A stretch of 62,006 nt of DNA, counting the filler. It is 8 parts of 8 records of this genome, joined end to end, with 100 filler letters (N's around TTAATTAATTAA, not from the genome) between each part and the next. Parts side by side here need not be neighbours in the genome. Positions count along the whole stretch, not along the records: positions 44,233 to 55,995 come from SRR7504441_1796; 7 more parts are not named here. One strand, 5' to 3'. The notes under the pieces are model-generated. The model did not search any database and was not told where the DNA came from. It saw only the letters and a program-made list of their open reading frames with translations. A program made the position numbers and the translations under genes. The first letter of the stretch is position 1, and the number at the start of each line of letters is the position of its first letter. Below, in pieces: positions 3,386 through 56,095 of the stretch.

Positions 3386-3485
3386 NNNNNNNNNNNNNNN
3401 NNNNNNNNNNNNNNNNNNNNNNNNNNNNNTTAATTAATTAANNNNNNNNNNNNNNNNNNNNNNNNNNNNNNNNNNNNNNNNNNNN
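3386..3485. other. Artificial contig linker
   Basis: N-run + TTAATTAATTAA (stops in six frames) + N-run, 100 nt. Confidence 0.98.
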
Positions 3486-9000: not shown

Positions 9001-9100
9001 NNNNNNNNNNNNNNNNNNNNNNNNNNNNNNNNNNNNNNNNNNNNTTAATTAATTAANNNNNNNNNNNNNNNNNNNNNNNNNNNNNNNNNNNNNNNNNNNN
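9001..9100. other. Artificial contig linker
   Basis: N/TTAATTAATTAA/N. Confidence 0.98.
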
Positions 9101-16281: not shown

Positions 16282-16381
16282 NNNNNNNNNNNNNNNNNNN
16301 NNNNNNNNNNNNNNNNNNNNNNNNNTTAATTAATTAANNNNNNNNNNNNNNNNNNNNNNNNNNNNNNNNNNNNNNNNNNNN
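16282..16381. other. Artificial contig linker
   Basis: N/TTAATTAATTAA/N. Confidence 0.98.
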
Positions 16382-25259: not shown

Positions 25260-25359
25260 NNNNNNNNNNNNNNNNNNNNNNNNNNNNNNNNNNNNNNNNN
25301 NNNTTAATTAATTAANNNNNNNNNNNNNNNNNNNNNNNNNNNNNNNNNNNNNNNNNNNN
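25260..25359. other. Artificial contig linker
   Basis: N/TTAATTAATTAA/N. Confidence 0.98.
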
Positions 25360-25399
25360 GGGGGGGGGGGGGGGGGGGGGAGGGGGAGGCCGTTGGGCA

Positions 25400-34196: not shown

Positions 34197-34296
34197 NNNN
34201 NNNNNNNNNNNNNNNNNNNNNNNNNNNNNNNNNNNNNNNNTTAATTAATTAANNNNNNNNNNNNNNNNNNNNNNNNNNNNNNNNNNNNNNNNNNNN
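34197..34296. other. Artificial contig linker
   Basis: N/TTAATTAATTAA/N. Confidence 0.98.
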
Positions 34297-44132: not shown

Positions 44133-44232
44133 NNNNNNNNNNNNNNNNNNNNNNNNNNNNNNNNNNNNNNNNNNNNTTAATTAATTAANNNNNNNNNNNN
44201 NNNNNNNNNNNNNNNNNNNNNNNNNNNNNNNN
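44133..44232. other. Artificial contig linker
   Basis: N/TTAATTAATTAA/N. Confidence 0.98.
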
Positions 44233-44727
44233 CGGTTCTCCTTGGGGTTCATCGGAACCTCGGTCAGCAGCACCCCGGCCACGTCCTCCTCGGCCTCATC
44301 CTCTGCCCCGACCACGCAGCGCAGCTCGTTGTCGAAGGTGTGCCGCCATATCTGCATCCAGGCAATCTCAGTCCGGCAGCTGGGGGCGGTTGCCTTCTCC
44401 ATGTCGTCCCAGTTGTTGATCACGCCGTGCTCCAGCGGGTACTTGAGCACCAGGATCCCCCGCTTCTGCTGCGCCTCCTCCCCGACCTGCCCCCCGTCCG
44501 CCCGCCCGCCCGTGCCAGGCCGCACGTAATACGACTTGTCGCTCCCGGCGAGCATCGCCGTGCCCTTGGGGTACCCGACGCAAGAGGCGAAGGTGACCTT
44601 GGGCGCGTCCTCGCCGGACAGGCCGCACTTCATCATACCGGTCCCGTTGTCCATGATGATGGCTGGCTTCTCTTCCTCTGCCGGCCGCTCGCCGCCCGCT
44701 CGCCGGCGGCCACCCACCGTCGTACAT
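44233..44727 (-). CDS. Divergent actin/actin-like protein, N-terminal part, 3 introns
   Basis: Introns 44678-44717, 44487-44525 and 44352-44393 give [22 protein letters not shown]...[38 protein letters not shown]. Confidence 0.93.
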
Positions 44728-45174
44728 CGCTGCTCGAATGTTGCTCGAATGTTTCGCTGCTCCTCCTCCAGTGGTTGGAGGCTGGCGTACCCGCGAGCAT
44801 CGTTTCCATTTTAGGGAACCGTTTACGGTAGAGTGATGATCATTCTTAAGTCATTGGGACTGTCGACGGCTGCGACGCGAGTTTGTGGCGGAGTGCATGA
44901 AGCTGGACAGCGATGCCGGGCTTGCTACGTATTCGGTTCTTCCTTTAGAGCCGGTAAGAGCCGGTACCAGTAATTATAACACCGGCCAAGTGTTCGGGTT
45001 GCGGGGTCGTCAGCGAACCGGCCACTGTGTGGTTGCCCAGCTGCTTGGTTTATGGTTGATTGGTTAATAAACCTATCTGCCATAAACCGGGCGCAGAGAG
45101 CGTGCTGTCCAGCTAGAGTGGGACAAGCAATACAATCTTCCATGCACATGACAACACTTTATTAATTTTGTGTG

Positions 45175-45238
45175 TGGGGACACCGGAAATTGTACCCCAG
45201 TGCTCATGGGGTACAGTCATGGGGTACGGTGTTCCCCA
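45175..45238. repeat. Nested inverted repeat (hairpin)
   Basis: tggggacaccg...cggtgttcccca enclosing tgtacccca/tggggtaca. Confidence 0.65.
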
Positions 45239-45303
45239 ATCCCGTTTACACTTATTATGAGGATGCGAGGACAGTTATTTTGAGTGCTTCTCTTATCGCT
45301 GGC

Positions 45304-45705
45304 TCACGACTTGGGCATGAAGACACCTTCACTAGTCTCCCATTCGGCGTCCAGCCCACCATGGCTGCTAGCACTTACCTCCAACTGCCCATGGATCGGG
45401 CAGTTGGGGCAGTTGGCCTGTGTGAACGCGGCCGAGTGCCCTGTGTGCAGGTACCTGAATAAACACCCTGAGCGTCGCACCCGGAGGCATACTAGGTACC
45501 GGCCTGTGCCTGCGTGCTTCAGTTTGATCGGACCGCCCCGCTGCCAGTGTCCCCCGGTGCACTCCACCCGCCAGTCGTCCCCCTCGTCCCCTTGCCCGTC
45601 GCCCCCGAAACCGCTCACCTCGTTGTGCTGGTTGGACAGTGGGGCCTTGACTGGGTGGCTGTGCAGATGCTTGCCGGTACCCACATGGACGATTGCAGCT
45701 CCTTT
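45304..45705 (-). pseudogene. 5'-truncated SDF2/SDF2L1 (MIR domains 2-3 only)
   Basis: HVGTGKHLHSH..APLSNQHNEVSGFG.DGQGDEGDDWRV..KLKHAGTGRYL..PIHGQLEV..WETSEGVF; upstream stop, no signal peptide or MIR1 found. Confidence 0.6.
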
Positions 45706-45931
45706 CTAAATGCCTTTCTGCACATGCACGGGTCTTTGGTGGCCGGTGGTGTTGACCTCGTCAGTGGCGTAGATAGGGGTGGCTCTTTGTGGCCAGGAAA
45801 TGCATCATGCGTGTCTAGAGTAGACCTACCACTCTTATGGGCACCACGCGAGTAGCCCATGTGCGTTAGACGGTTGGGACACACGTTTTAATTAAATTAA
45901 AACGGCGAGGACAGACACCGGGAGTGCGGGC

Positions 45932-48900
45932 ATGGAGATCGCGACATGGGTGCGGGACACCGGGATGGCCGCACTGAAGAACGCGGGCGACAAAGTGATG
46001 GCCGTTCCCGCCTTGATCAACTCCAACTGGTCCGTCGACCAGATCGTCCAAGACATGCTCGACACCTACGTCAAATCGGTGGCCGCGGCCACGGGACCGA
46101 TCGACTCCCGGGGGGCGGCAGAACGATGGCGGCGAGATCCGGGTTAACGATCTCCCGGGGAGCGTTGGCTATCAGGTCAACTCGGCGCATCTGGTGCTGC
46201 AGGTGCCACGCCGTCGGGCTGTAGCAGTGCCGGACTGAGGCTGCCCCGGCTAGCTGGGCCCCGCCGGGTGGAGTGTCCGTTGGGCTCAGCGGTGGGGCCA
46301 GGAGGAGCTGGTCAAGCTGGTTAAGGAGCGGGTGGGCTTCACCGTCGTCGCCCCGGTGCTGTGCCGTTAGTTGTGGCCTGACCGCCGCACCCAGACGGGG
46401 AGCGGCTACCATGTGCGCAAGATGGACCTATCGCTAAAGCTGGCCAAAGAGGAGAGATCCGAGATCGTTCTCGAGGGCGTCCGTATCGCTATCTCTACTG
46501 ATGACTTCGATGAGTACTTTGCCAACGAGCAGAGGAAACAGCAACAGATGCCGGCCGCCCGCTCGGTGAGCCGTGGCGGGGTCGCTGGCCGATGCAGCCG
46601 GGTCAGGGTGCGCCAGCTGAGGATGCTGAGGAGGCTGGTTGGTGTTCTGGTTTGTGGCAATATTATGGAGACCCTTATGTCCGAGCAATGATCGCCAACT
46701 TTGACATCGTGCTGCGTGATGTCACAGTGGTATGTCTCCTGCTGCGCTCTGCTGCGCTCAGAGCTGTTTCAGGTGCTAAAACAAAACGACAACAGCCGGT
46801 CGCACTCTCCATTCCGAGGCGCAGCGCTGGCTCATTTGGACCGAATCGAGCTGAGTAGCAACTCACGCGCTGGCGAAGCATTCGAGCTCAATCACATCTC
46901 GCTCGACATGCAGCTGTTTGGATTGCGGGTGGAGGTCGGGCGAACGCCGTTGCGCCGAAGCTAGACGGCCGTTGGGGCAGGTGGGCCCAGAAGACTACAA
47001 GCGGAATGATTGGTCGATCAAAAAGAAAGGCTGTGAAGGACTGCTTGACCCGCAGGTGGGCGACTGCTTGCTGGGATATGTGCTGAGCGGAGCCACAGAT
47101 TGTTATCTCTCGCGATCGCGGCATGGAGTCAGAGTCTGACGGTACCCGTCCCGTGCTTGTGCTGTGCTCAGTAATTGACAGGTGACTCGCCGACTGCCTC
47201 GATTAGGCTGATACTCAAGCACGTTAAGAAGTTTCTGATCGAGTTCAGATTGAAGTCCATGACAGTGATGATGGGGAAGCCTGGTCGTACAGAGAGGATC
47301 GTTGGGCTGTCGGAGCGCCTGCGTGAGCAAGCCGATTTGGTCCGGCTCTACGTTAGCAATATTGACCAGGGTTACTGTATGCGGATGGAGAAAGAGGATC
47401 CAATTCATGGCAAAATTCTGAGCTCTTACCTCGCGAGCCATGTAATGCTCACCTCGCAGCAAAAGGAGGTCGACCAGCCGGTGGCGCCCAGCTGAACTGA
47501 GGGCAGGATTTCTTCTGCAACCTCACCGTGCGCATGCCGGTGGCTCCATTCATCTGATAAAGGGCCGAAGGGCTCTAGACACTCCTTGTGCCGGAATGAC
47601 GTCCGGTGCTGCAGGTGCCGTTGCAAATTCTGGTGCTTCATCTGGAAATCCTCGAGGCCATCTACTATCTCGTCGAAAATTTGGCCTCTGCCCAGCCCGA
47701 GGACAAGAGCCCTGAGGTGCTCTTACAGCGAAATAGCGGAATGAGCTCGAGTGAGTTGAAACGCGTGGATTCCGCCGAGCTAGCGGCGGCAGAGAAGCAA
47801 AATTCCCGGCACATACTGTGTGAAGTGGTCGCCAGGCAGAGCAGCAAGCCGAGCAGCCACGCCCACGAGAGTAACTTCAGCTTTCACAATCTGACGCTCG
47901 CTGTACAAGCGAAGCGCGAGCATTTGAAAAACCCGCAGAAAGAGCCTCCCAGCGAGGTTCTGTCGTGTTACAAGACCAGACTCGATTTACCGCACGTGCT
48001 GCCGCGAGGTTCTTCTGTGCCCGGACAGGAGTCGGTTCAGGTGATGCTGGATCTTGAGGACATCTTTCTGCTCGATGTGATCGAGCTGTGCAATCCTCTC
48101 CCCGGAGAAAAGGTACAGACACCCTTTGTATCGATCGAGTGCGCCGAAGAAATCACAGGCGGATTTTATGATATTGTGGAGAAGACGGCGCTGCCTCAGT
48201 CTCAGGAGGGCGTATTCCGGTTTGAGGTGCCCAAAATCAATCCGGTCAAGTCTCAATACGTGCGGCTCACTCTTTATGGAAAGCCTGGCAACGAAGTGGG
48301 GCTGTACTACGTGAAGATCGAGGGCAAACCGTTTGGTACAGGCAAAACGATAGGCATCAACTGTGAGCTCGCCTCACCTGTAGTGATCCTACCGTCACTG
48401 AAGCGGGTGGAGGGCATAATTGATTACAGCTATTATAGGGATGGCGACAAGCCTTTCGACTGCATCGTTGTGTCGCCCGGTACCATCAAGCTAGACAACT
48501 ATGGCACGTTTGCCGATAAGATGCAGCTATACGGGACCCACTTGTCCGGTGGGGAAAAACATCGCAGAGCAAGCGGATTCAAGAAGACGACAAAGCACAA
48601 GCACTCGTTTACCATCAGTGTGACGGCCTCCACGGACGCCTCGCTGAGCAGTATGGACAATTACGGGGCTCTCATGAGTCTAACCACGGGCAAATGGCAA
48701 AAGCAGGATGGAGTTGAGTTCTTTGTGGTCAAAACGGTGCAGAACGCGGCCAGCCAGGTGATATACATGAAGTCGCCAGATGGAGACAGCGCGCCAGTTC
48801 AGCACTTTCTCAGGTTCATCCAGCGAAAATCGTCAATAAAACTTGAAACAGTCATGCTGCCGCGTGGGTCCGGGATAGTCCTGCGGTTTGACCAGAATAG

Positions 48901-51900
48901 TCTCAACAAGGTTTTGGACGTTATCGCCAAAGAAACTGAGCAGCTTGCTGGACATCATCAGACCATGGCGTCCAATGTGGCAAATCTGATGCAAACTATC
49001 CAAACCCAAATGCTTAAAGACGTCGCCAGCCTGAAAGAGGAGAACTTGAACTTGGTCAAACTTAGGGCGTCGGTCTGGCACAAAGTGGAAATTATTCTCA
49101 AGCTTGTGCCATCGCCGAGTAATAATGCTACGCGCGCGCCGGAGGGTTTCACCGCCTCTGTGGAGATCGCCGAGCCACTGGAGCTAGCTTTGACAAAGGA
49201 CGAGGTGACGATCGAGTTTGACCAAATAAAGGGCCAAATGCCACACCGGTGCTCCCCACCAGACATGTCGCTCGAATTGGACCAGCTCTACACAGTGTTC
49301 ATCAAAGCCCTCGCAGATCTCTCGGACATGAGGCAGGAGCAGCAGATTGCAGAGGCTAGGGCGAACCTATGGAAGGAGATTGGGGTCAGGGTGGAGCAAG
49401 TCCCAACGGAGGCAAGGCAGATCGCCAGGATGCTCAGGAAACAGATCAAAATGATCCGCGAACGCAAGCAGCGCTCAACAGAGGAGATTAAGGTTTATGG
49501 ACAGTCGTGCGAGTTGCTCCATAAGCACCTCGAATTTGCAGAGCAACACTCGTGCGTAATCCGGCTAAAGGCAGCGCCGCTGGGTACAAAAGCGTGTGAT
49601 GGAACGACGGGAAAATGCCGATTGGTATACATCATCCAGCGTAGTAATTATCCTGGTTTGTCTCAGGGCGACGCGGAGGTAAGGCTGCCTTCGCTCCGCA
49701 TAAATTGCGTGATGGATGGAGACACCAACTTTGACTTTGACGCTCCTAAGATACTTTATTATCACAACGGTAGCCAGGCTGTGCTCTTCAAGACGTCACA
49801 GCTGTCCATCATTTCGGCGGTGCACCCGGATTCGGTTGCACGCTGGTTCTCAATGATGCTTGATCCTGAGGTCCCGCTGATGGAGTACAAGATCAACCCC
49901 GCGTCAGACGAGTCCGATGTGCTAGTCAAACTCGGCGACGACAAGAATTCTAATGTGCTTAGGACCACCCTCAATCTCTTGAAACTCGATCTCTTCAAAA
50001 GGAACGCTGTCGAAGGGCGTGGCCACTCAGTTGTGGATATTGCATGGACAACCACCAGTATCGCATACGTGCAAGACGCGATAGCGGCGTTCACTTGTGC
50101 TGTGTCAACTGGTGGGATTGACGATGATGCCGACGGGCTGGTCAAGCTGCTGCGTAAGCTCTTTCGGCGCAGCCAGGCACAGCGGACAGAGCCCAACTGG
50201 TTTCAAGGCGAAGTGCAGCCCACGCAAGACGAACCCGCTGAGTCACGCCCGTTCCATTATGAGATCTCAGGCCTGAATCGGACGAAACTCAACATAAACA
50301 ACTTGCAACCGTCGTTCGGCCTATTTAACAGGAGTGGGGTCACAGTAGGTATCAGCAACTACCGCTCACTCGATGGGTCATGTCACAATGCCTGCAAGCT
50401 GTTCCTGTTTGCCATCTTCTTCCTTGTCGGCCTGGACCTTTTCCCCGCCATATTCGCAGGGGCTGTCTTCCTGTATGCGTCACTCGATTGCGACCAAAAA
50501 GACTTGAACTGCCCATCGCGCGTCACAGCCCTTACGACAGGACTCATGGTCGTGGTGGTATGCGTCTTTCTCGCCCCGGCCGGGCTGCATGCGCTTTCGG
50601 GCTTCACAAACCGCACTTATGGGCTTGTGGCCGGCTACCTCTGTATCTTGGTGTTTGCCTTCAAGTCTGAGGAGGGCTTCAATTGGATCTTGGATCTGCT
50701 GAAAAAGCCGGACGGAGAATTGGTGCTCGAATGGCTCACGATCTGGATCTGCCTCTTCTGCACTGTGCTCTCGTTCTGGAACTTGGAGCGCACGATCACT
50801 TGGAGCAGGCTCTCGATCAGGCCGCCAAAGATGCACAACTTGCAGACTCTGCAGATTATAGGCTACGCAATCGGCATCCTCGGGCTGATGATGGCCATCA
50901 CGCTGGGAGTAGAGTACGCGATTTGGTCTGCCGATAGCAACGACAGTCTGCCCATTTGCGACTCTGGGGAGCCTGCGGAAGCTCTATGCAAGCCAAGTGA
51001 GAAGGGCTATGATCCCACACTTTATGCAGCATTCGTGATGTTGGCTGTAGCACTGTTGGTGGCCCTCAGGATCATGATCAGCCAAGTGGGGATGGCATTC
51101 ACAGTGGCAAAGACTCAGCTGCACAATAAACCTCTGCACGAGCGAGCCTTCCAGTCAGAGATCGAGGAAATCGCAGAGACTTCCCACCTCGAAACACAAA
51201 AGACCTTCCTCGCCCAAGCAGGACTTCTTCAGTCCCAACAATCTGCGGGGATCTCAATTTTTGGGCTAGTGCAAGTGTGTGCCTTTGTGATTCTTATCAT
51301 GTGGTTTTGGATTTGGAACGGAATTGAGCTGGGCTGGGCGGTGGAAAGGGCGACCCTAAAGACCGCCAATGTGACAAGGGACACCAGCCGCAACTTCATG
51401 GTGTTCGGGTTCCTTGCCGTGGGCTGGTTTGGAACCTTCCTGGTGGGGGAGCTGCTGCTGGCTGTCCTTAGGTTGGCGGTACAGGTGGCTTTGGTCTTTA
51501 TTTTCGTGTCGCAAGCACGGCTCCGTAGGCGGCAGAACTATCTCGAGAATCTAGCTGAGCAGGTGTGGTGCGTGTTGCATCCACCGCTCAGTACAGGGGA
51601 CAGGCGTTTTTAGACGAGCAGAACCCGAACGAGGTCCGCTGTAGCCTAATCAGTCATCTGCCAGTCTAGTCGGGCTGAGCGATGATACAGGAGCTGAAGA
51701 TCCCGCACGAGGGTGCGCCTGATACAGAATGGTACGCCTTCCTCGCCCAGCGCCCCCTCTTCAAGGATCGGCCTGAAAATTTGGAGAGTGATGACTTATC
51801 CAAGCTCATAGCCATGGCCAAGACTGCCTATCTCAAGTACAGGCCCCGCAGTACAGACTGCCCGCTCCCGCATTCCGCGTTGCCACCTCCTGCTCTAGAG

Positions 51901-52650
51901 AAAGACAAGCCGCTGCAAGGTTCAGTCTCTGAATATGACAAACCAGACGATGATGACCCGTCTTCGTCTGAGGAAGAAGACGAGGCGATCGACATGAGGA
52001 ACAAGTTTGTGCAGGTTGGGGCCATTCAGCGCGTCAAGGTGGGGGCTTGGGACAAATCTTCGGTGGAGGTAGATATCAGGCCGGGGTACACTGTCAATTG
52101 GGAGTGGGAAATGGCACGGTCTGAGCCATTGAGTCACAATGTTAAGTTCGAGCTGAATCTCATCAATGGAAGAGGCGACCGGGTTGGAGATAAACCTGAT
52201 CAGCAGGGTGTATTTAGGATGAGACAGAACCGCGGCACGTATTGTTTCAATAAGAAGTGCGAGAAGCAACCACTGCTTAATGATGCGAACGCCCTGCAGT
52301 TTGTGTTTGACAACGAGTTCTCCTGGTGATTGCATCCTCTTTTAGCCCGCAGTGGGTGCTAGCTGGATGGACAGGCACAACTCAAAGGATATTGAGCTGA
52401 AATGGGATAGAGGCGAGCCTAAATAGCTGGCCCAGCCAGTGTTCTGAGTGTGCTGGCAGTGCGGGATAGCGAGGTCGACGTCCAAGCTGATAAAGCGAAT
52501 GAGGAGCTCGCCACTTCAGATCCCGAAATGAGGGCTCCCCAGCGGATATTCAAAACAAACACGCGACTACCGACCATGGGGGGGCCAATCGGGCCTGACG
52601 AGGATGAGGATATACCGACAATCGTCAATATCACCAATATCACTTTGTAG
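45932..52650 (+). CDS. VPS13/Chorein-N-like lipid-transfer protein with a galactose-binding-like insert, 8-10 TM helices and a GOLD domain
   Basis: Spliced 5' exons: MLDTYVK, EIVLEGVRIAI, VRAMIANFDIVLRDVTVV, LDRIELSSN; repeat motif ELASPVVILP..IVVSPGTIKLDN; TM block about 50390-51510; GOLD-like VNWEW..GTY..FVFDNEFSW|HNSKDI. Confidence 0.7.
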
Positions 52651-52862
52651 GTCGCCATCTGTGATCGGGCCTGAGGGCCGACTGCTAGGGGAGATCGTGC
52701 AACAGCTTTTTACAGTATAAACCTGTTGCGCCTAGCGATTTTCCTTCTCTCAAATCGAGTTTTCGACCGCTCGCTGAGGGTCGCGGGGTCGGACCTTGGG
52801 TATTTTACGATATTTCACGGTAATCATTATAATGGAGCGACTCATACTGTTCATCCATACTG

Positions 52863-54082
52863 TTAGGTATCTGGATCTAGAGGACGATCTAACTTGAGGT
52901 TGGCCTCCTCTGTTGCCTCCTTTGCTGCTACCCCATCCGAAGCCTCCGTGGAACTCTCGGCTTCAGCACTCGCTATCAGCACTCTCTGTCAACTGCTCGG
53001 CAGCCGGCTCGCTCGTCTTGGGCTGGAGCAGCGCCTGCAGCCAAGTGAGCCCGGGGCTGGCCAGCTCGCACCAAGTGCTTTTTAGGGTCAAACTGCAGCA
53101 TCTGGGCATCGGTGCGCGTCGGGTCAAAGCACGATGACTTGCAATTCATCCAAGAATCGCTCCAGCGCGGCGCGGCGTGCGTGAAGAAGCTGCCCGAGGG
53201 CGGGAGCTCGCCCTCCGGGTGTGACTGCTCCCACTCCAGCTGGATCATCTGAACAAACCCATTATACGGCGTGCATGCTCGCCCTTCCGGGGTCTCCTCA
53301 TACGGCGGGGGCGGGGGCGGCTTGTTGTCCTCCTGCTGTTTGAGCACCGCGGCCAGTATCTCCGGGTCCGGCACGTACGGGCACAGGTGCTCGAAAAAGA
53401 AGTCCAGCTTGCTCACCATGTTGTAATCCCACCGTATTGGCCCCAAAAGCCCCGTCTCAGGGTCATCCTCCTCGCGCACCGGCCCCTGAAAATGTATCCC
53501 AAGCACCCGCCCCGCCGCGTCCGCCACCGGCGAGCCGTTCAGGGCGGTGTACTCGCGCTCGTACCGCCGGTCGTAAATCAGTTTCCACTTGTCCTCTCCC
53601 TCCAGCCTCCACTCCCTCACCTCCACGGCCTCGCCCACCGGCTCGCAGCAGAACACCGGCCTGGCCGTTGGCACCGGCCCGCACGCGGCCAGCTGGGCCG
53701 GCGGGATCGCTTGGAGCTTGGGCAGATCTTCCTCGAGTACCTCGTGCATCGTGAAGCTGTAGTGCCGCCCGCAGCCCAAGCTGTCCACACAGCCCTTCTG
53801 CAGCCGCACAGTGACCGCCGGGCCGTCGGGGGGGTAGAAGCTGGCCGTGGCCCCGTGTACCGCCTCCCGCCAATCACGGATCACGTTGGCCGAGGTGAGG
53901 ATGCAATGACTGGATCGCTTGGGGTGAAACGCCTTGCCGTCGACCAGCAGCCCAGCCCCCCAGCAACCCCACTCCGGGGCCGGATCATCAAGCTTGATCC
54001 CAGCGAACGAGCTGGCCTTGATCCGAGCGTCCACGTTCAGCTCGATCCGGCAGGTGGCCAACGCTACTGCTGCCGGCGGCAT
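52863..54082 (-). CDS. Trypsin-like (Trypsin_2/FAM111-type) fold protein, probably inactive
   Basis: GAGLLV, CILTSANVI, LNGSPVADAAGRVLGIH; 3' end depends on splicing (52863-52976). Confidence 0.6.
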
Positions 54083-54531
54083 TGCTGGGTTGATAACGGA
54101 CCGCGGAGATCGCAAGACCCTCAGTACCGCACGATCTTGGCCCCAATTCTAAAGCCTTAGCATCGGCCGTAGTATAATTCTAGTAGATCTACCCAAATGG
54201 CCCATCCGGCTGCTGGACGTACGGTACATACACATCGAAGCGAAATCACACTGATTGCATTTGGGTCGAGCAAAGCGCTATTATTTAAAATAAGTGCTTT
54301 GCGGTAGTGCTCGAGACTTCCCGTGAGTAATTAGATTAGCCAACTGATCAATATGGCAGTACTTGTTATGGCGGATCTTAGGAGCTAGGTAGTGTAACCT
54401 AGGACGACTTAGTCTACGCGCTATGCAGGGCCGCCTTGTCCTTGGCGGCTTGGCCCGCGACGCTCAGTTTAGCTCGTAACGGAACGGGTGCCCGGTTCAG
54501 GTTGCAACCTGAGCATTGCACGCCGACGCCG

Positions 54532-55689
54532 ATGGCGACGAATGGGCACAACAACGAACCGTCGCCCAAGAGGCGGAAGCACGGATCATTCCAGGACCTT
54601 GACGATGTGCGCATCGAGGACGTGCGGCCGCTAATCTCCCCGGCCCTGCTGCTCGAGGAGCTCCCGTGCCAGGGAGTCAATCACGAGAACGTGCTCCGCT
54701 CCCGCCGGGAGCTCCAGCGGATCTGCGAGGGGCAGGACCACCGGCTGGTTGTGATCGTGGGGCCGTGCTCGGTGCACGACCCGGCAGCCGCGCTCGAGTA
54801 CGCCCAGCGGCTGCAGCAGCTAGTGGGGGAACTCAAGCAAGAGCTCCTGGTGATCATGCGGGTTTATTTCGAGAAGCCGCGGACCACCGTCGGGTGGAAG
54901 GGCCTGATCAACGATCCAGAGCTGGACGGCACCTTCAAGATCAACCGGGGCCTCCGGGTGGGCCGCAAGCTGCTGCTGGACATCACCACCATCGGGCTGC
55001 CCACCGCGGTCGAATTCCTCGACACGATCACTCCGCAGTTCATCGCCGATCTAGTCACCTGGGGCGCGATCGGGGCGCGCACCACCGAGTCACAGGTGCA
55101 CCGGGAGCTCGCATCCGGGCTGTCAGTCCCGATCGGGTTCAAGAATGCCACCAGCGGCGAGGTGCAGCTGGCAGTGGACGCGTGCCGCTCTGCCAACTCG
55201 CCACACTCGTTCCTGTCGGTAACCAAGCAGGGGCTGGCGGCTATCGTGCACACCAAAGGCAACCCGTGCGCCCATGTCATCCTGCGCGGCGGCGGTGGCA
55301 AGACCAACTACGACGCCGAATCTGTGGAGAGTACCAGGGCGGCGATGGCCAAAGGTGGGCTGGTTCCTAGGATAGTGGTGGATTGCTCGCACGGCAACTC
55401 GATGAAGAAGCACCAGAACCAGCCGATAGCGGCGGCCGACGTGGCAGCTCAGGTGGCTGGCGGCGATTGGCACATAATGGGGCTGATGCTAGAGTCAAAC
55501 CTGCACGCGGGCAACCAGAGCCTCAAGCCTGGGCAGACGCTGCCCAGTCAGCTCAAATATGGGGTCAGCGTGACCGACGAGTGCATCGATTGGGACACCA
55601 CCGTCACTGTGCTCCGGGACCTGGCCGCCGCCGCCAAGAAGCGACGGGAGAGCAGCACGAGCCCACTGGCAGCCTCGACCGAACATTAA
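54532..55689 (+). CDS. aroG: Class I (AroF/G/H, ARO3/4-type) DAHP synthase, intronless
   Basis: GPCSVHD, RVYFEKPRTTVGWKGLINDP, IGARTTESQVHRELASGLS, VDCSHGNS, YGVSVTDEC. Confidence 0.96.
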   Translation: MATNGHNNEPSPKRRKHGSFQDLDDVRIEDVRPLISPALLLEELPCQGVNHENVLRSRRELQRICEGQDHRLVVIVGPCSVHDPAAALEYAQRLQQLVGELKQELLVIMRVYFEKPRTTVGWKGLINDPELDGTFKINRGLRVGRKLLLDITTIGLPTAVEFLDTITPQFIADLVTWGAIGARTTESQVHRELASGLSVPIGFKNATSGEVQLAVDACRSANSPHSFLSVTKQGLAAIVHTKGNPCAHVILRGGGGKTNYDAESVESTRAAMAKGGLVPRIVVDCSHGNSMKKHQNQPIAAADVAAQVAGGDWHIMGLMLESNLHAGNQSLKPGQTLPSQLKYGVSVTDECIDWDTTVTVLRDLAAAAKKRRESSTSPLAASTEH

Positions 55690-55995
55690 GGGTAGGTTGA
55701 ACGAAGCTGCCTGTGATCAAGAACATGTCCTGGCTGGACGCATTCGGGTTGTGGCTGAATGATGCTAGTCCAAGCGATGATCACCGGTACAGCGACGAGG
55801 GCGAGGTATTGGACGGGCGATGCTCGTTGTGTTGAGGCTTATCACCGAGAGGATAGGACTGAATCATGCAACACTGCACGTACAACGTTAACTAATTAAA
55901 CCTTCTATAACATTACACGATCAATGCCGTTCTTGTACGGTACGCGTAACCGTACAGTATTACAGTAGACTAGACTACCAGGTACCGTACGCATT

Positions 55996-56095
55996 NNNNN
56001 NNNNNNNNNNNNNNNNNNNNNNNNNNNNNNNNNNNNNNNTTAATTAATTAANNNNNNNNNNNNNNNNNNNNNNNNNNNNNNNNNNNNNNNNNNNN
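55996..56095. other. Artificial contig linker
   Basis: N/TTAATTAATTAA/N. Confidence 0.98.

Follow-up and report, generated by a model that had tools for sequence, protein, structure and literature searches.

We analysed a 62,006-nucleotide stretch of DNA (the window), which consists of separate draft contigs joined by seven spacers, and in particular a plus-strand gene contained entirely in one of these contigs (44233-55995). This is a real multi-exon protist gene that combines a long soluble region, a block of transmembrane (TM) helices and a GOLD-like end, and its product is a member of a small protist family of polytopic membrane proteins that lacks annotation. The original prediction, made from the letters of the same stretch, had described the locus as a VPS13-like lipid bridge fused to its own membrane domain and GOLD domain.

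Gene structure and relatives

The central part of the gene is an open frame of 1337 codons (47600-51613), within which splice signals delimit a single large exon, referred to below as the big exon (Table 1). As originally proposed, one unbroken exon runs from the long soluble part into the TM helices, of which we count eight; ~930 soluble residues and the membrane block share this exon, and there is no splicing at the junction between them. The next exon follows an intron whose two flanks both match one frame of the homologue P0001 (719 amino acids), which also matches the TM block with an E value of 4.7e-40. The C-terminus of P0001, in the same frame as its TM block, matched the exon at 51691-52325 (BLASTP E 1e-11, 30% identity, 96 columns), and because one P0001 frame carries both, the TM block and the GOLD-like end belong together. 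The unspliced junction on one side and the single P0001 frame on the other therefore support the claim that soluble region, TM block and GOLD-like tail lie in one gene.

Past this exon there is probably one further mini-exon, whose best local match in P0001 (residues 672-680, just past FDNSFSY at 662-668) is collinear; 95 of 500 shuffled sequences scored equally high. Alternatively, the protein ends without the mini-exon at a TGA (52327-52329). The open reading frame (ORF) at 52426-52650 was considered as the last exon and rejected, as it does not resemble the tail of P0001, and we read it as untranslated; the end coordinate of 52650 given in the original prediction thus overshoots a coding sequence that probably stops at 52424-52426. 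The gene product is most likely ~1,900 residues long, from a plus-strand locus extending from ~45932 (5' end uncertain) to 52426.

Coding potential upstream of the big exon was scored by frame, using a codon model derived from the big exon, and frame-specific peaks mark small plus-strand exons from the ATG at 45932 onwards. A dynamic-programming search for open GT-AG paths, carried out with five intron penalties, gave an open spliced path from this ATG to 47615 under all five; the path contained five to eight exons depending on the penalty, with candidate introns as short as 38-48 nucleotides (nt). Because the many GT and AG sites make some open path expected, this chain of 5' exons is a model only. 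The exon just before the big exon (exon 7) probably belongs to the same gene, since the N-terminus of the homologue P0003 (721 amino acids) matches it collinearly with the P0003 match to the big exon: the first 17 residues of P0003 match exon 7 weakly (16-residue match, E 0.004), and its match to the big exon extends over the first ~580 residues of the latter (E 1.8e-32). Four candidate introns (46079-46121, 46566-46606, 46730-46772 and 52326-52374) are 41-49 nt long, have GT...CAG ends and are all phase-compatible; if these are real, the organism has unusually short introns beside ones of 128-146 nt.

Relatives were sought by an exhaustive phmmer comparison of the 1200 residues encoded by 47972-51571 with 1,835,955,588 representative proteins. 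This gave 28 relatives at E<=0.001, with 11 at <=1e-10 and four at <=1e-30, all of them fragments of at most 721 residues; the pre-TM/TM part is covered by 20 of the 28 and the soluble part by eight. Ten homologues were looked up, two being transcripts of Telonema subtile (EukProt) and the others ENA or Logan contigs. The Telonema sequences P0009 and P0022 open with an identical ~20-residue stretch, which looks like translated sequencing adapter; these transcripts would therefore be 5'-truncated and their N-termini artefacts. Word-based searches gave no homologue of the big ORF among proteins of 735-2340 residues, none of alignment A1 among proteins of 30-68 residues and none of the GOLD-like exon, and no related locus was found when metagenome contigs were searched with two single proteins (the big exon and P0014). 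Pfam gave no credible match to any part of the gene, the two sub-threshold matches on one 5' ORF being unrelated.

The contig sequence is GC-rich and intron-bearing and is therefore eukaryotic. Minus-strand genes on either side bound the plus-strand locus, namely a MIR-domain ORF upstream and a 390-codon frame downstream; a stretch of the latter (G-x-P-V...G-R-V-L-G-I-H) resembles, by eye, chymotrypsin-like or 3C-like serine/cysteine proteases. Each spacer of the window consists of 44 N, TTAATTAATTAA and 44 N, i.e. the contigs are joined by six-frame-stop linkers, and gene order across the spacers is therefore not synteny. At least 20 G in a row stand directly after one spacer (25360-25379), probably an assembly or sequencing end artefact.

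Table 1. Features of the gene and of its surroundings, with positions counted along the window
Feature	Position	Strand	Basis and remarks
Actin-family fragment	44235-44810	-	Pfam E 6.6e-18; cut by contig end
MIR-domain ORF	45304-45705	-	Pfam E 1.5e-07; divergent from the plus-strand gene, ~230 nt between
Candidate first coding exon (ATG 45932)	45932-46078	+	Positive coding potential ~45910-46060, frame 45851; borders model only
Zone of small candidate 5' exons	46122-47101	+	Coding-potential peaks; introns 38-48 nt; exact borders uncertain
Candidate exons in this zone, first three	~46122-46202, 46302-46355, 46395-46565/46572	+	Coding potential
Candidate exons in this zone, last three	~46607/46617-46715/46729, 46762/46773-46934, 46981-47101	+	Coding potential
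Exon 7, just upstream of the big exon	47184-47468	+	Coding potential, frame 45852; donor GT 47469, alternative donor 47481
Big exon, 1316 codons (cytosolic region and TM block)	47615-51562	+	Splice signals: acceptor CAG 47612-47614, donor GTGTGG at 51563; 28 homologues
Predicted discoidin-like/galactose-binding-like beta-sandwich	~48029-48334	+	AlphaFold2 block with pLDDT 54-80 (mostly 63-80), construct residues 139-240; Foldseek
VPS13-type strand-pair motif (core ~48341-48510)	48341-48646	+	Conserved in homologues; profile A7 matches
Predicted helical segment	49268-49552	+	AlphaFold2 helices, construct residues 552-646; block pLDDT 57-87 over 561-650
Juxtamembrane motif before TM1, G-L-N/D ... 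N-L-x-P-S-x-G-x-x-N-R-x-G	50252-50344	+	Conservation in A8 and A4
Eight TM helices, ORF residues 933-1303	50396-51508	+	Hydropathy; AlphaFold2 model of P0001
Intron, 128 nt, phase 0 (GT...CAG)	51563-51690	+	Both flanks match one frame of P0001
Exon: linker with acidic run, then GOLD-like domain (~52000-52325)	51691-52325	+	Splice signals; P0001 match
Probable last mini-exon, stop TAG 52424-52426	52375-52426	+	After 49-nt intron 52326-52374; donor GTGATT, acceptor CAG, split TGG codon
Open frame, 390 codons	52976-54148	-	No Pfam match at E<=0.001
DAHP synthase	54403-55689	+	Pfam E 4.4e-88
Spacers	3386-3485, 9001-9100, 16282-16381, 25260-25359, 34197-34296, 44133-44232, 55996-56095

Modules of the predicted protein

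From N- to C-terminus, the product most likely comprises the residues of the small 5' exons, a disordered stretch, a beta-sandwich, a strand pair, helices and a juxtamembrane motif (together ~1,250 cytosolic residues), followed by eight TM helices, an acidic linker and the GOLD-like end. Residues 1-929 of the big exon were modeled with AlphaFold2, using ten alignment rows only, and two pieces of the model were confident: the beta-sandwich (construct residues 139-240) and the helices (~560-650). The sandwich is predicted to have the F5/8 type C/galactose-binding-like jelly-roll fold. When the soluble model was compared with the PDB using Foldseek there was one match at E<=0.001, to the F5/8 type C domain 3ggl (E 3.9e-4), and galactose-binding-like sandwiches (CBM32, SUN, SUN2, discoidin, neuropilin b1 and the BIRC6 sandwich) made up the best 50 matches; the sandwich matches had E values of 3.9e-4 to 2e-2 and target template modeling scores (TM-scores) of 0.42-0.57 (0.53-0.55 for 2kd7 and 3f2z). 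A protein atlas gave F5/8 type C for the whole ORF with a score of 0.84, which is a lead only, and the Pfam families PF00754 and PF22633 were found neither on the big ORF nor on ten members of A1. The discoidin-like sandwich was absent from the original description.

The soluble region ends in a juxtamembrane motif in which G219, N229, P232, G235, N238, R239 and G241 are invariant in the eight-row profile A8, and N901, P904, G907, N910 and G913 are conserved in the 18-row alignment A4. Within the big exon, the C-terminal ~390 residues contain seven hydropathy peaks above 1.5 and one weaker segment, i.e. eight TM helices. For this block, P0001 modeled with AlphaFold2 on 18 rows has values of the predicted local distance difference test (pLDDT) of 70-90 (residues 20-360). 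A split of TM8 into two helices was considered and rejected, as the extra 14 residues are absent from P0001. In the soluble part nothing else scores as a TM helix; hydropathy over 19 residues reaches 1.4-1.7 at most, at its N-terminal end, compared with peaks of 2.1-2.7 in the TM block.

Conservation in A4 was counted over the rows with a residue at the column concerned. An aspartate inside TM1 (D946) is kept in 14 of 15 rows, and the loop 1 cysteines C964 and C971 in 15 of 17 and 15 of 16, respectively. The turn between TM2 and TM3 carries P993 (17/18), H997 (14/18), G1001 (16/18) and R1005 (17/18), and P1076 (11/11) and C1120 (8/9) are conserved further on. Loops 1 and 5 are acidic and have conserved cysteines, and TM8 is followed by an arginine-rich run. 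Together with the lack of further TM-level segments in the soluble part, these features suggest, at a modest charge bias, an N-in/C-in topology, in which every soluble module would be cytosolic and the cysteine pairs of loops 1 and 5 would therefore face the lumen or the outside. No signal-peptide-like start was noted by eye in exon 1. An extracellular N-terminal domain was also considered, as there is a mostly conserved N-x-S/T before TM1, but several homologues break this sequon, and the loop charges and cysteines fit an N-in arrangement.

The original prediction had proposed that the membrane domain serves as a scramblase or an anchor. The anchor holds, because the TM helices are present; the scramblase function found no support. 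Foldseek gave no match of the TM block to the PDB at E<=0.001, the best matches being ABC-transporter TM domains with TM-scores of at most 0.18. No solved scramblase (ATG9, XKR, TMEM16 or DedA-type) was among the best 50, although the PDB library may lack DedA/VTT folds, and Pfam found none of ATG9, XK-related, SNARE_assoc/DedA or anoctamin.

The GOLD-like domain (52000-52325) is 32% identical to the C-terminus of P0001, with which it has in common P-G-Y-T, two tryptophans and an FDNxFS motif. A two-sequence profile of this region (A3) gave three matches in the PDB, the best of which was the GOLD domain of TMED1 (7rrm_C), aligned over FDNxFS. The E value of this match was only 0.79, Pfam found no GOLD/EMP24 domain in the region at E<=10, and in the P0001 model the region is not folded, with pLDDT mostly below 50 and three strands only. 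The prediction of a GOLD-like domain after further introns therefore stands as to the exon with its FDNxFS domain and its best match in the PDB, and does not reach significance as to the family; 'GOLD-like' appears a reasonable label, with membership unproven.

Kinship with VPS13 and competing explanations

Directly after the sandwich there is a strand-pair motif, i.e. a proline-flanked hydrophobic strand and then a strand of the form ...C-I-V-V-x-P-G-x-I-x-L-D-N..., which is kept in P0003, P0014, P0015 and P0017 and partly in P0020. We searched 177,635 distinct PDB sequences with a six-row profile of this motif (A7), and only two matches were returned at E<=10, both of them VPS13 proteins: VPS13C (9yqp_B, E 0.26), in which two copies were aligned (1239-1274 and 1756-1789), and VPS13 (9yrm_B, E 0.35), aligned over 701-766. 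The broader profile A1 also matched VPS13 (9yrm_B) with an E value of 0.11, at rank 8 of 49 and behind seven antibody light chains that match the neighbouring stretch. Chance is an uncomfortable explanation of the A7 result, because an unbiased search of the PDB gave only VPS13 proteins, on a motif that recurs in them. The motif therefore probably indicates homology to one strand pair of the repeating beta-groove (RBG) type, and is not proof of a groove; kinship of the whole protein with VPS13 appears plausible but unproven.

Several results weigh against a VPS13-type bridge. The VPS13 matches are below significance (E 0.11-0.35) and the motif occurs in a single copy across the gene, so that of the beta-groove repeat originally described one conserved, sub-threshold motif remains. 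The three-row profile A6 missed VPS13 in the PDB, and A8, which represents the conserved pre-TM part, matched no VPS13, ATG2 or other RBG protein there. Pfam found no Chorein_N, VPS13, VAB, ATG_C, PH, Apt1, Fmp27 or AsmA-type domain in six ORFs at E<=1, and no RBG family in ten homologues at E<=0.1 or in ten A1 members at E<=10; the statement in the original prediction that a VAB, ATG2_C or PH end is absent agrees with this. The Chorein_N reading of the 5' exons was not borne out: neither three read-through frames (45850-47618) nor seven single-exon peptides gave a Chorein_N or RBG-family match in Pfam at E<=10, and two read-through frames and three 5' exons gave no PDB match with phmmer at E<=10, although these queries were read-through frames or exons 22-95 residues long and not the spliced protein, so that a divergent domain could escape. 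The first candidate exon (45932-46078) had no match in Pfam or the PDB. Taken in order, the 5' exons appear to resemble the strands of Chorein_N and the conserved VPS13 stretch that follows it; this impression repeats the original prediction and does not support it independently. No VPS13-like features came from the protein atlas for the whole ORF or for residues 245-470, where it returned unnamed clusters only, with scores of at most 0.88.

The predicted structure does not show the expected hydrophobic beta-groove either. There is no groove in the soluble model and no RBG protein among its best 50 Foldseek matches; however, the mean pLDDT of the model is 44.1, with 146 of 929 residues at >=70 and 670 below 50, which is too poor to exclude a groove. 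The 5' exon model is a coding-potential model, and the GOLD match is neither significant nor backed by a folded domain.

On balance we tentatively favour, at somewhat less than an even chance, the explanation that the protein is related to VPS13 and acts at a contact site, with its own polytopic domain fixing its far end in a membrane. It would be a membrane-anchored relative of VPS13-type (RBG) proteins working at a membrane contact site, where the N-terminal part would reach to a second membrane or draw lipid from it. The opposite end would be anchored by the TM block, with its conserved TM1 aspartate and the P-x3-H-x3-G-x3-R turn after TM2, and this block may hand lipid on to the bilayer in which it sits, while the GOLD-like end and the discoidin-like domain may recruit partners. 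Lipid transfer and scrambling are a proposal only. A stronger form of the same idea, in which one chain unites a short VPS13-type lipid-conducting module with its own eight-helix acceptor, perhaps with scrambling, and the GOLD-like tail sets the contact site in a lineage with Telonema relatives, seems to us unlikely.

Nearly as likely as the VPS13-related reading is that this is a new polytopic membrane protein, for example a transporter, receptor or trafficking factor, without a lipid groove, in which cytosolic sandwiches (discoidin-like and GOLD-like) and helical domains bind partners or glycans and the likeness of the motif to VPS13 reflects a beta-hairpin that arose by chance or convergence. 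Every RBG family-model test was negative, what the model shows with confidence is a beta-sandwich and ~100 helical residues rather than a groove, and the best 50 Foldseek matches are galactose-binding-like sandwiches only. The VPS13 matches depend on the profile used as well as being weak, and the buried TM1 aspartate and the conserved histidine and arginine fit a transporter-like or enzyme-like domain equally well. What keeps this explanation in check is that both PDB matches of A7 are VPS13 proteins, which would be rare by chance, that the motif is conserved across the family, and that no transporter or receptor fold matched the TM block either.

It is also conceivable, though improbable, that two genes are involved: the 5' exons (45932 to ~46960) would then be a separate small gene or non-coding, and the membrane protein would start in or just before exon 7, in which case any resemblance of the 5' exons to Chorein would have no bearing on the TM protein. 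In favour of this, the exon models vary with the intron penalty chosen, the 5' exons are covered by none of the homologues (P0003 begins at the counterpart of exon 7), and there is an in-frame ATG inside exon 7. However, the coding signal of exon 7 extends upstream of its first ATG, the last 5' exon and exon 7 lie only ~220 nt apart, with coding signal in frame 45850 in between, the search gave an open spliced path whichever of the five penalties was used, and the next upstream gene, the MIR-domain ORF, is on the opposite strand.

In current models, a bridge-like lipid transporter depends on a separate scramblase or acceptor in the membrane that it supplies, and the exit of lipid from the groove is a standing question of the field. 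Were a VPS13-type module indeed fused naturally to a polytopic domain, partner and geometry would be fixed within one chain, and the protein would be a compact object for structural and reconstitution studies. Even without the VPS13 link, this is a family of ~1,900-residue membrane proteins with no Pfam coverage and 28 detectable relatives in 1.84 billion representatives, which carries conserved intramembrane polar residues.

Comparison with known systems

Proteins with a GOLD domain include, besides TMED/p24, also ACBD3, FYCO1, SEC14L and the GOLD-plus-7TM 'GOST' proteins such as TMEM87. The likeness to these lies in a putative beta-rich domain (C-terminal, ~110 residues) that ends in FDNxFS and then a strand, and in its best, non-significant PDB match to TMED1 GOLD. 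In TMED and GOST proteins the GOLD domain is N-terminal and lumenal, whereas the GOLD-like domain here is C-terminal and predicted to be cytosolic. The fold of construct residues ~139-240 resembles F5/8 type C, CBM32 and SUN domains, but here it comes without a Pfam match, with 11-22% identity, and in a region predicted to be cytosolic.

The likeness to VPS13 lies in the strand-pair motif, which aligns to the recurring motif of VPS13C and VPS13, in the large cytosolic region of both, and in a discoidin-like sandwich amid beta-rich segments. The last has a precedent, because passages of Levine (PMC7613979) describe VPS13B, protists included, as having a discoidin-like beta-sandwich inserted in a loop of its RBG rod. 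The differences are that here there is no detectable Chorein_N, VPS13 N-terminal, middle or C-terminal, VAB, ATG_C or PH domain and one copy of the motif, that the protein has ~1,900 residues as against at least 3,000 in VPS13, that the soluble part is predicted to contain ~200 helical residues midway along its length, and that there is a C-terminal eight-TM block, which is not described for VPS13 in the papers examined.

Some RBG proteins do carry their own membrane anchor. Passages of PMC7613979 describe Hobbit/BLTP2 and Tweek/BLTP1 as anchored by an N-terminal TM segment, and parts of PMC10683392 give green-plant VPS13Y one predicted N-terminal TM helix. In these cases the anchor consists of one or few N-terminal helices at the lipid-entry end, whereas here it is C-terminal, has eight helices and contains conserved polar residues, in a protein whose RBG identity is unproven. 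Transfer by bridge-like lipid transfer proteins is usually coupled to scrambling, with bridge and scramblase described as separate proteins in the relevant portion of PMC13036008, and ATG9A-ATG2A is likewise presented, in an abstract, as a bridge and a scramblase that are separate proteins. If the RBG reading holds, the present protein would resemble the ATG2-ATG9 and VPS13-scramblase pairs in that a lipid-conducting part and a polytopic part act together; it differs in that those pairs are two polypeptides, and its TM block matches no solved fold. A full-text literature search, limited to the main texts of one paper collection, found no RBG protein with a C-terminal multi-pass domain, although protist VPS13-like architectures may be shown in the supplemental figures of PMC7613979 and PMC13036008. 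Should the link to VPS13 hold, the protein differs from these systems in its polytopic C-terminal anchor; otherwise, it represents a separate family that has so far gone unannotated.

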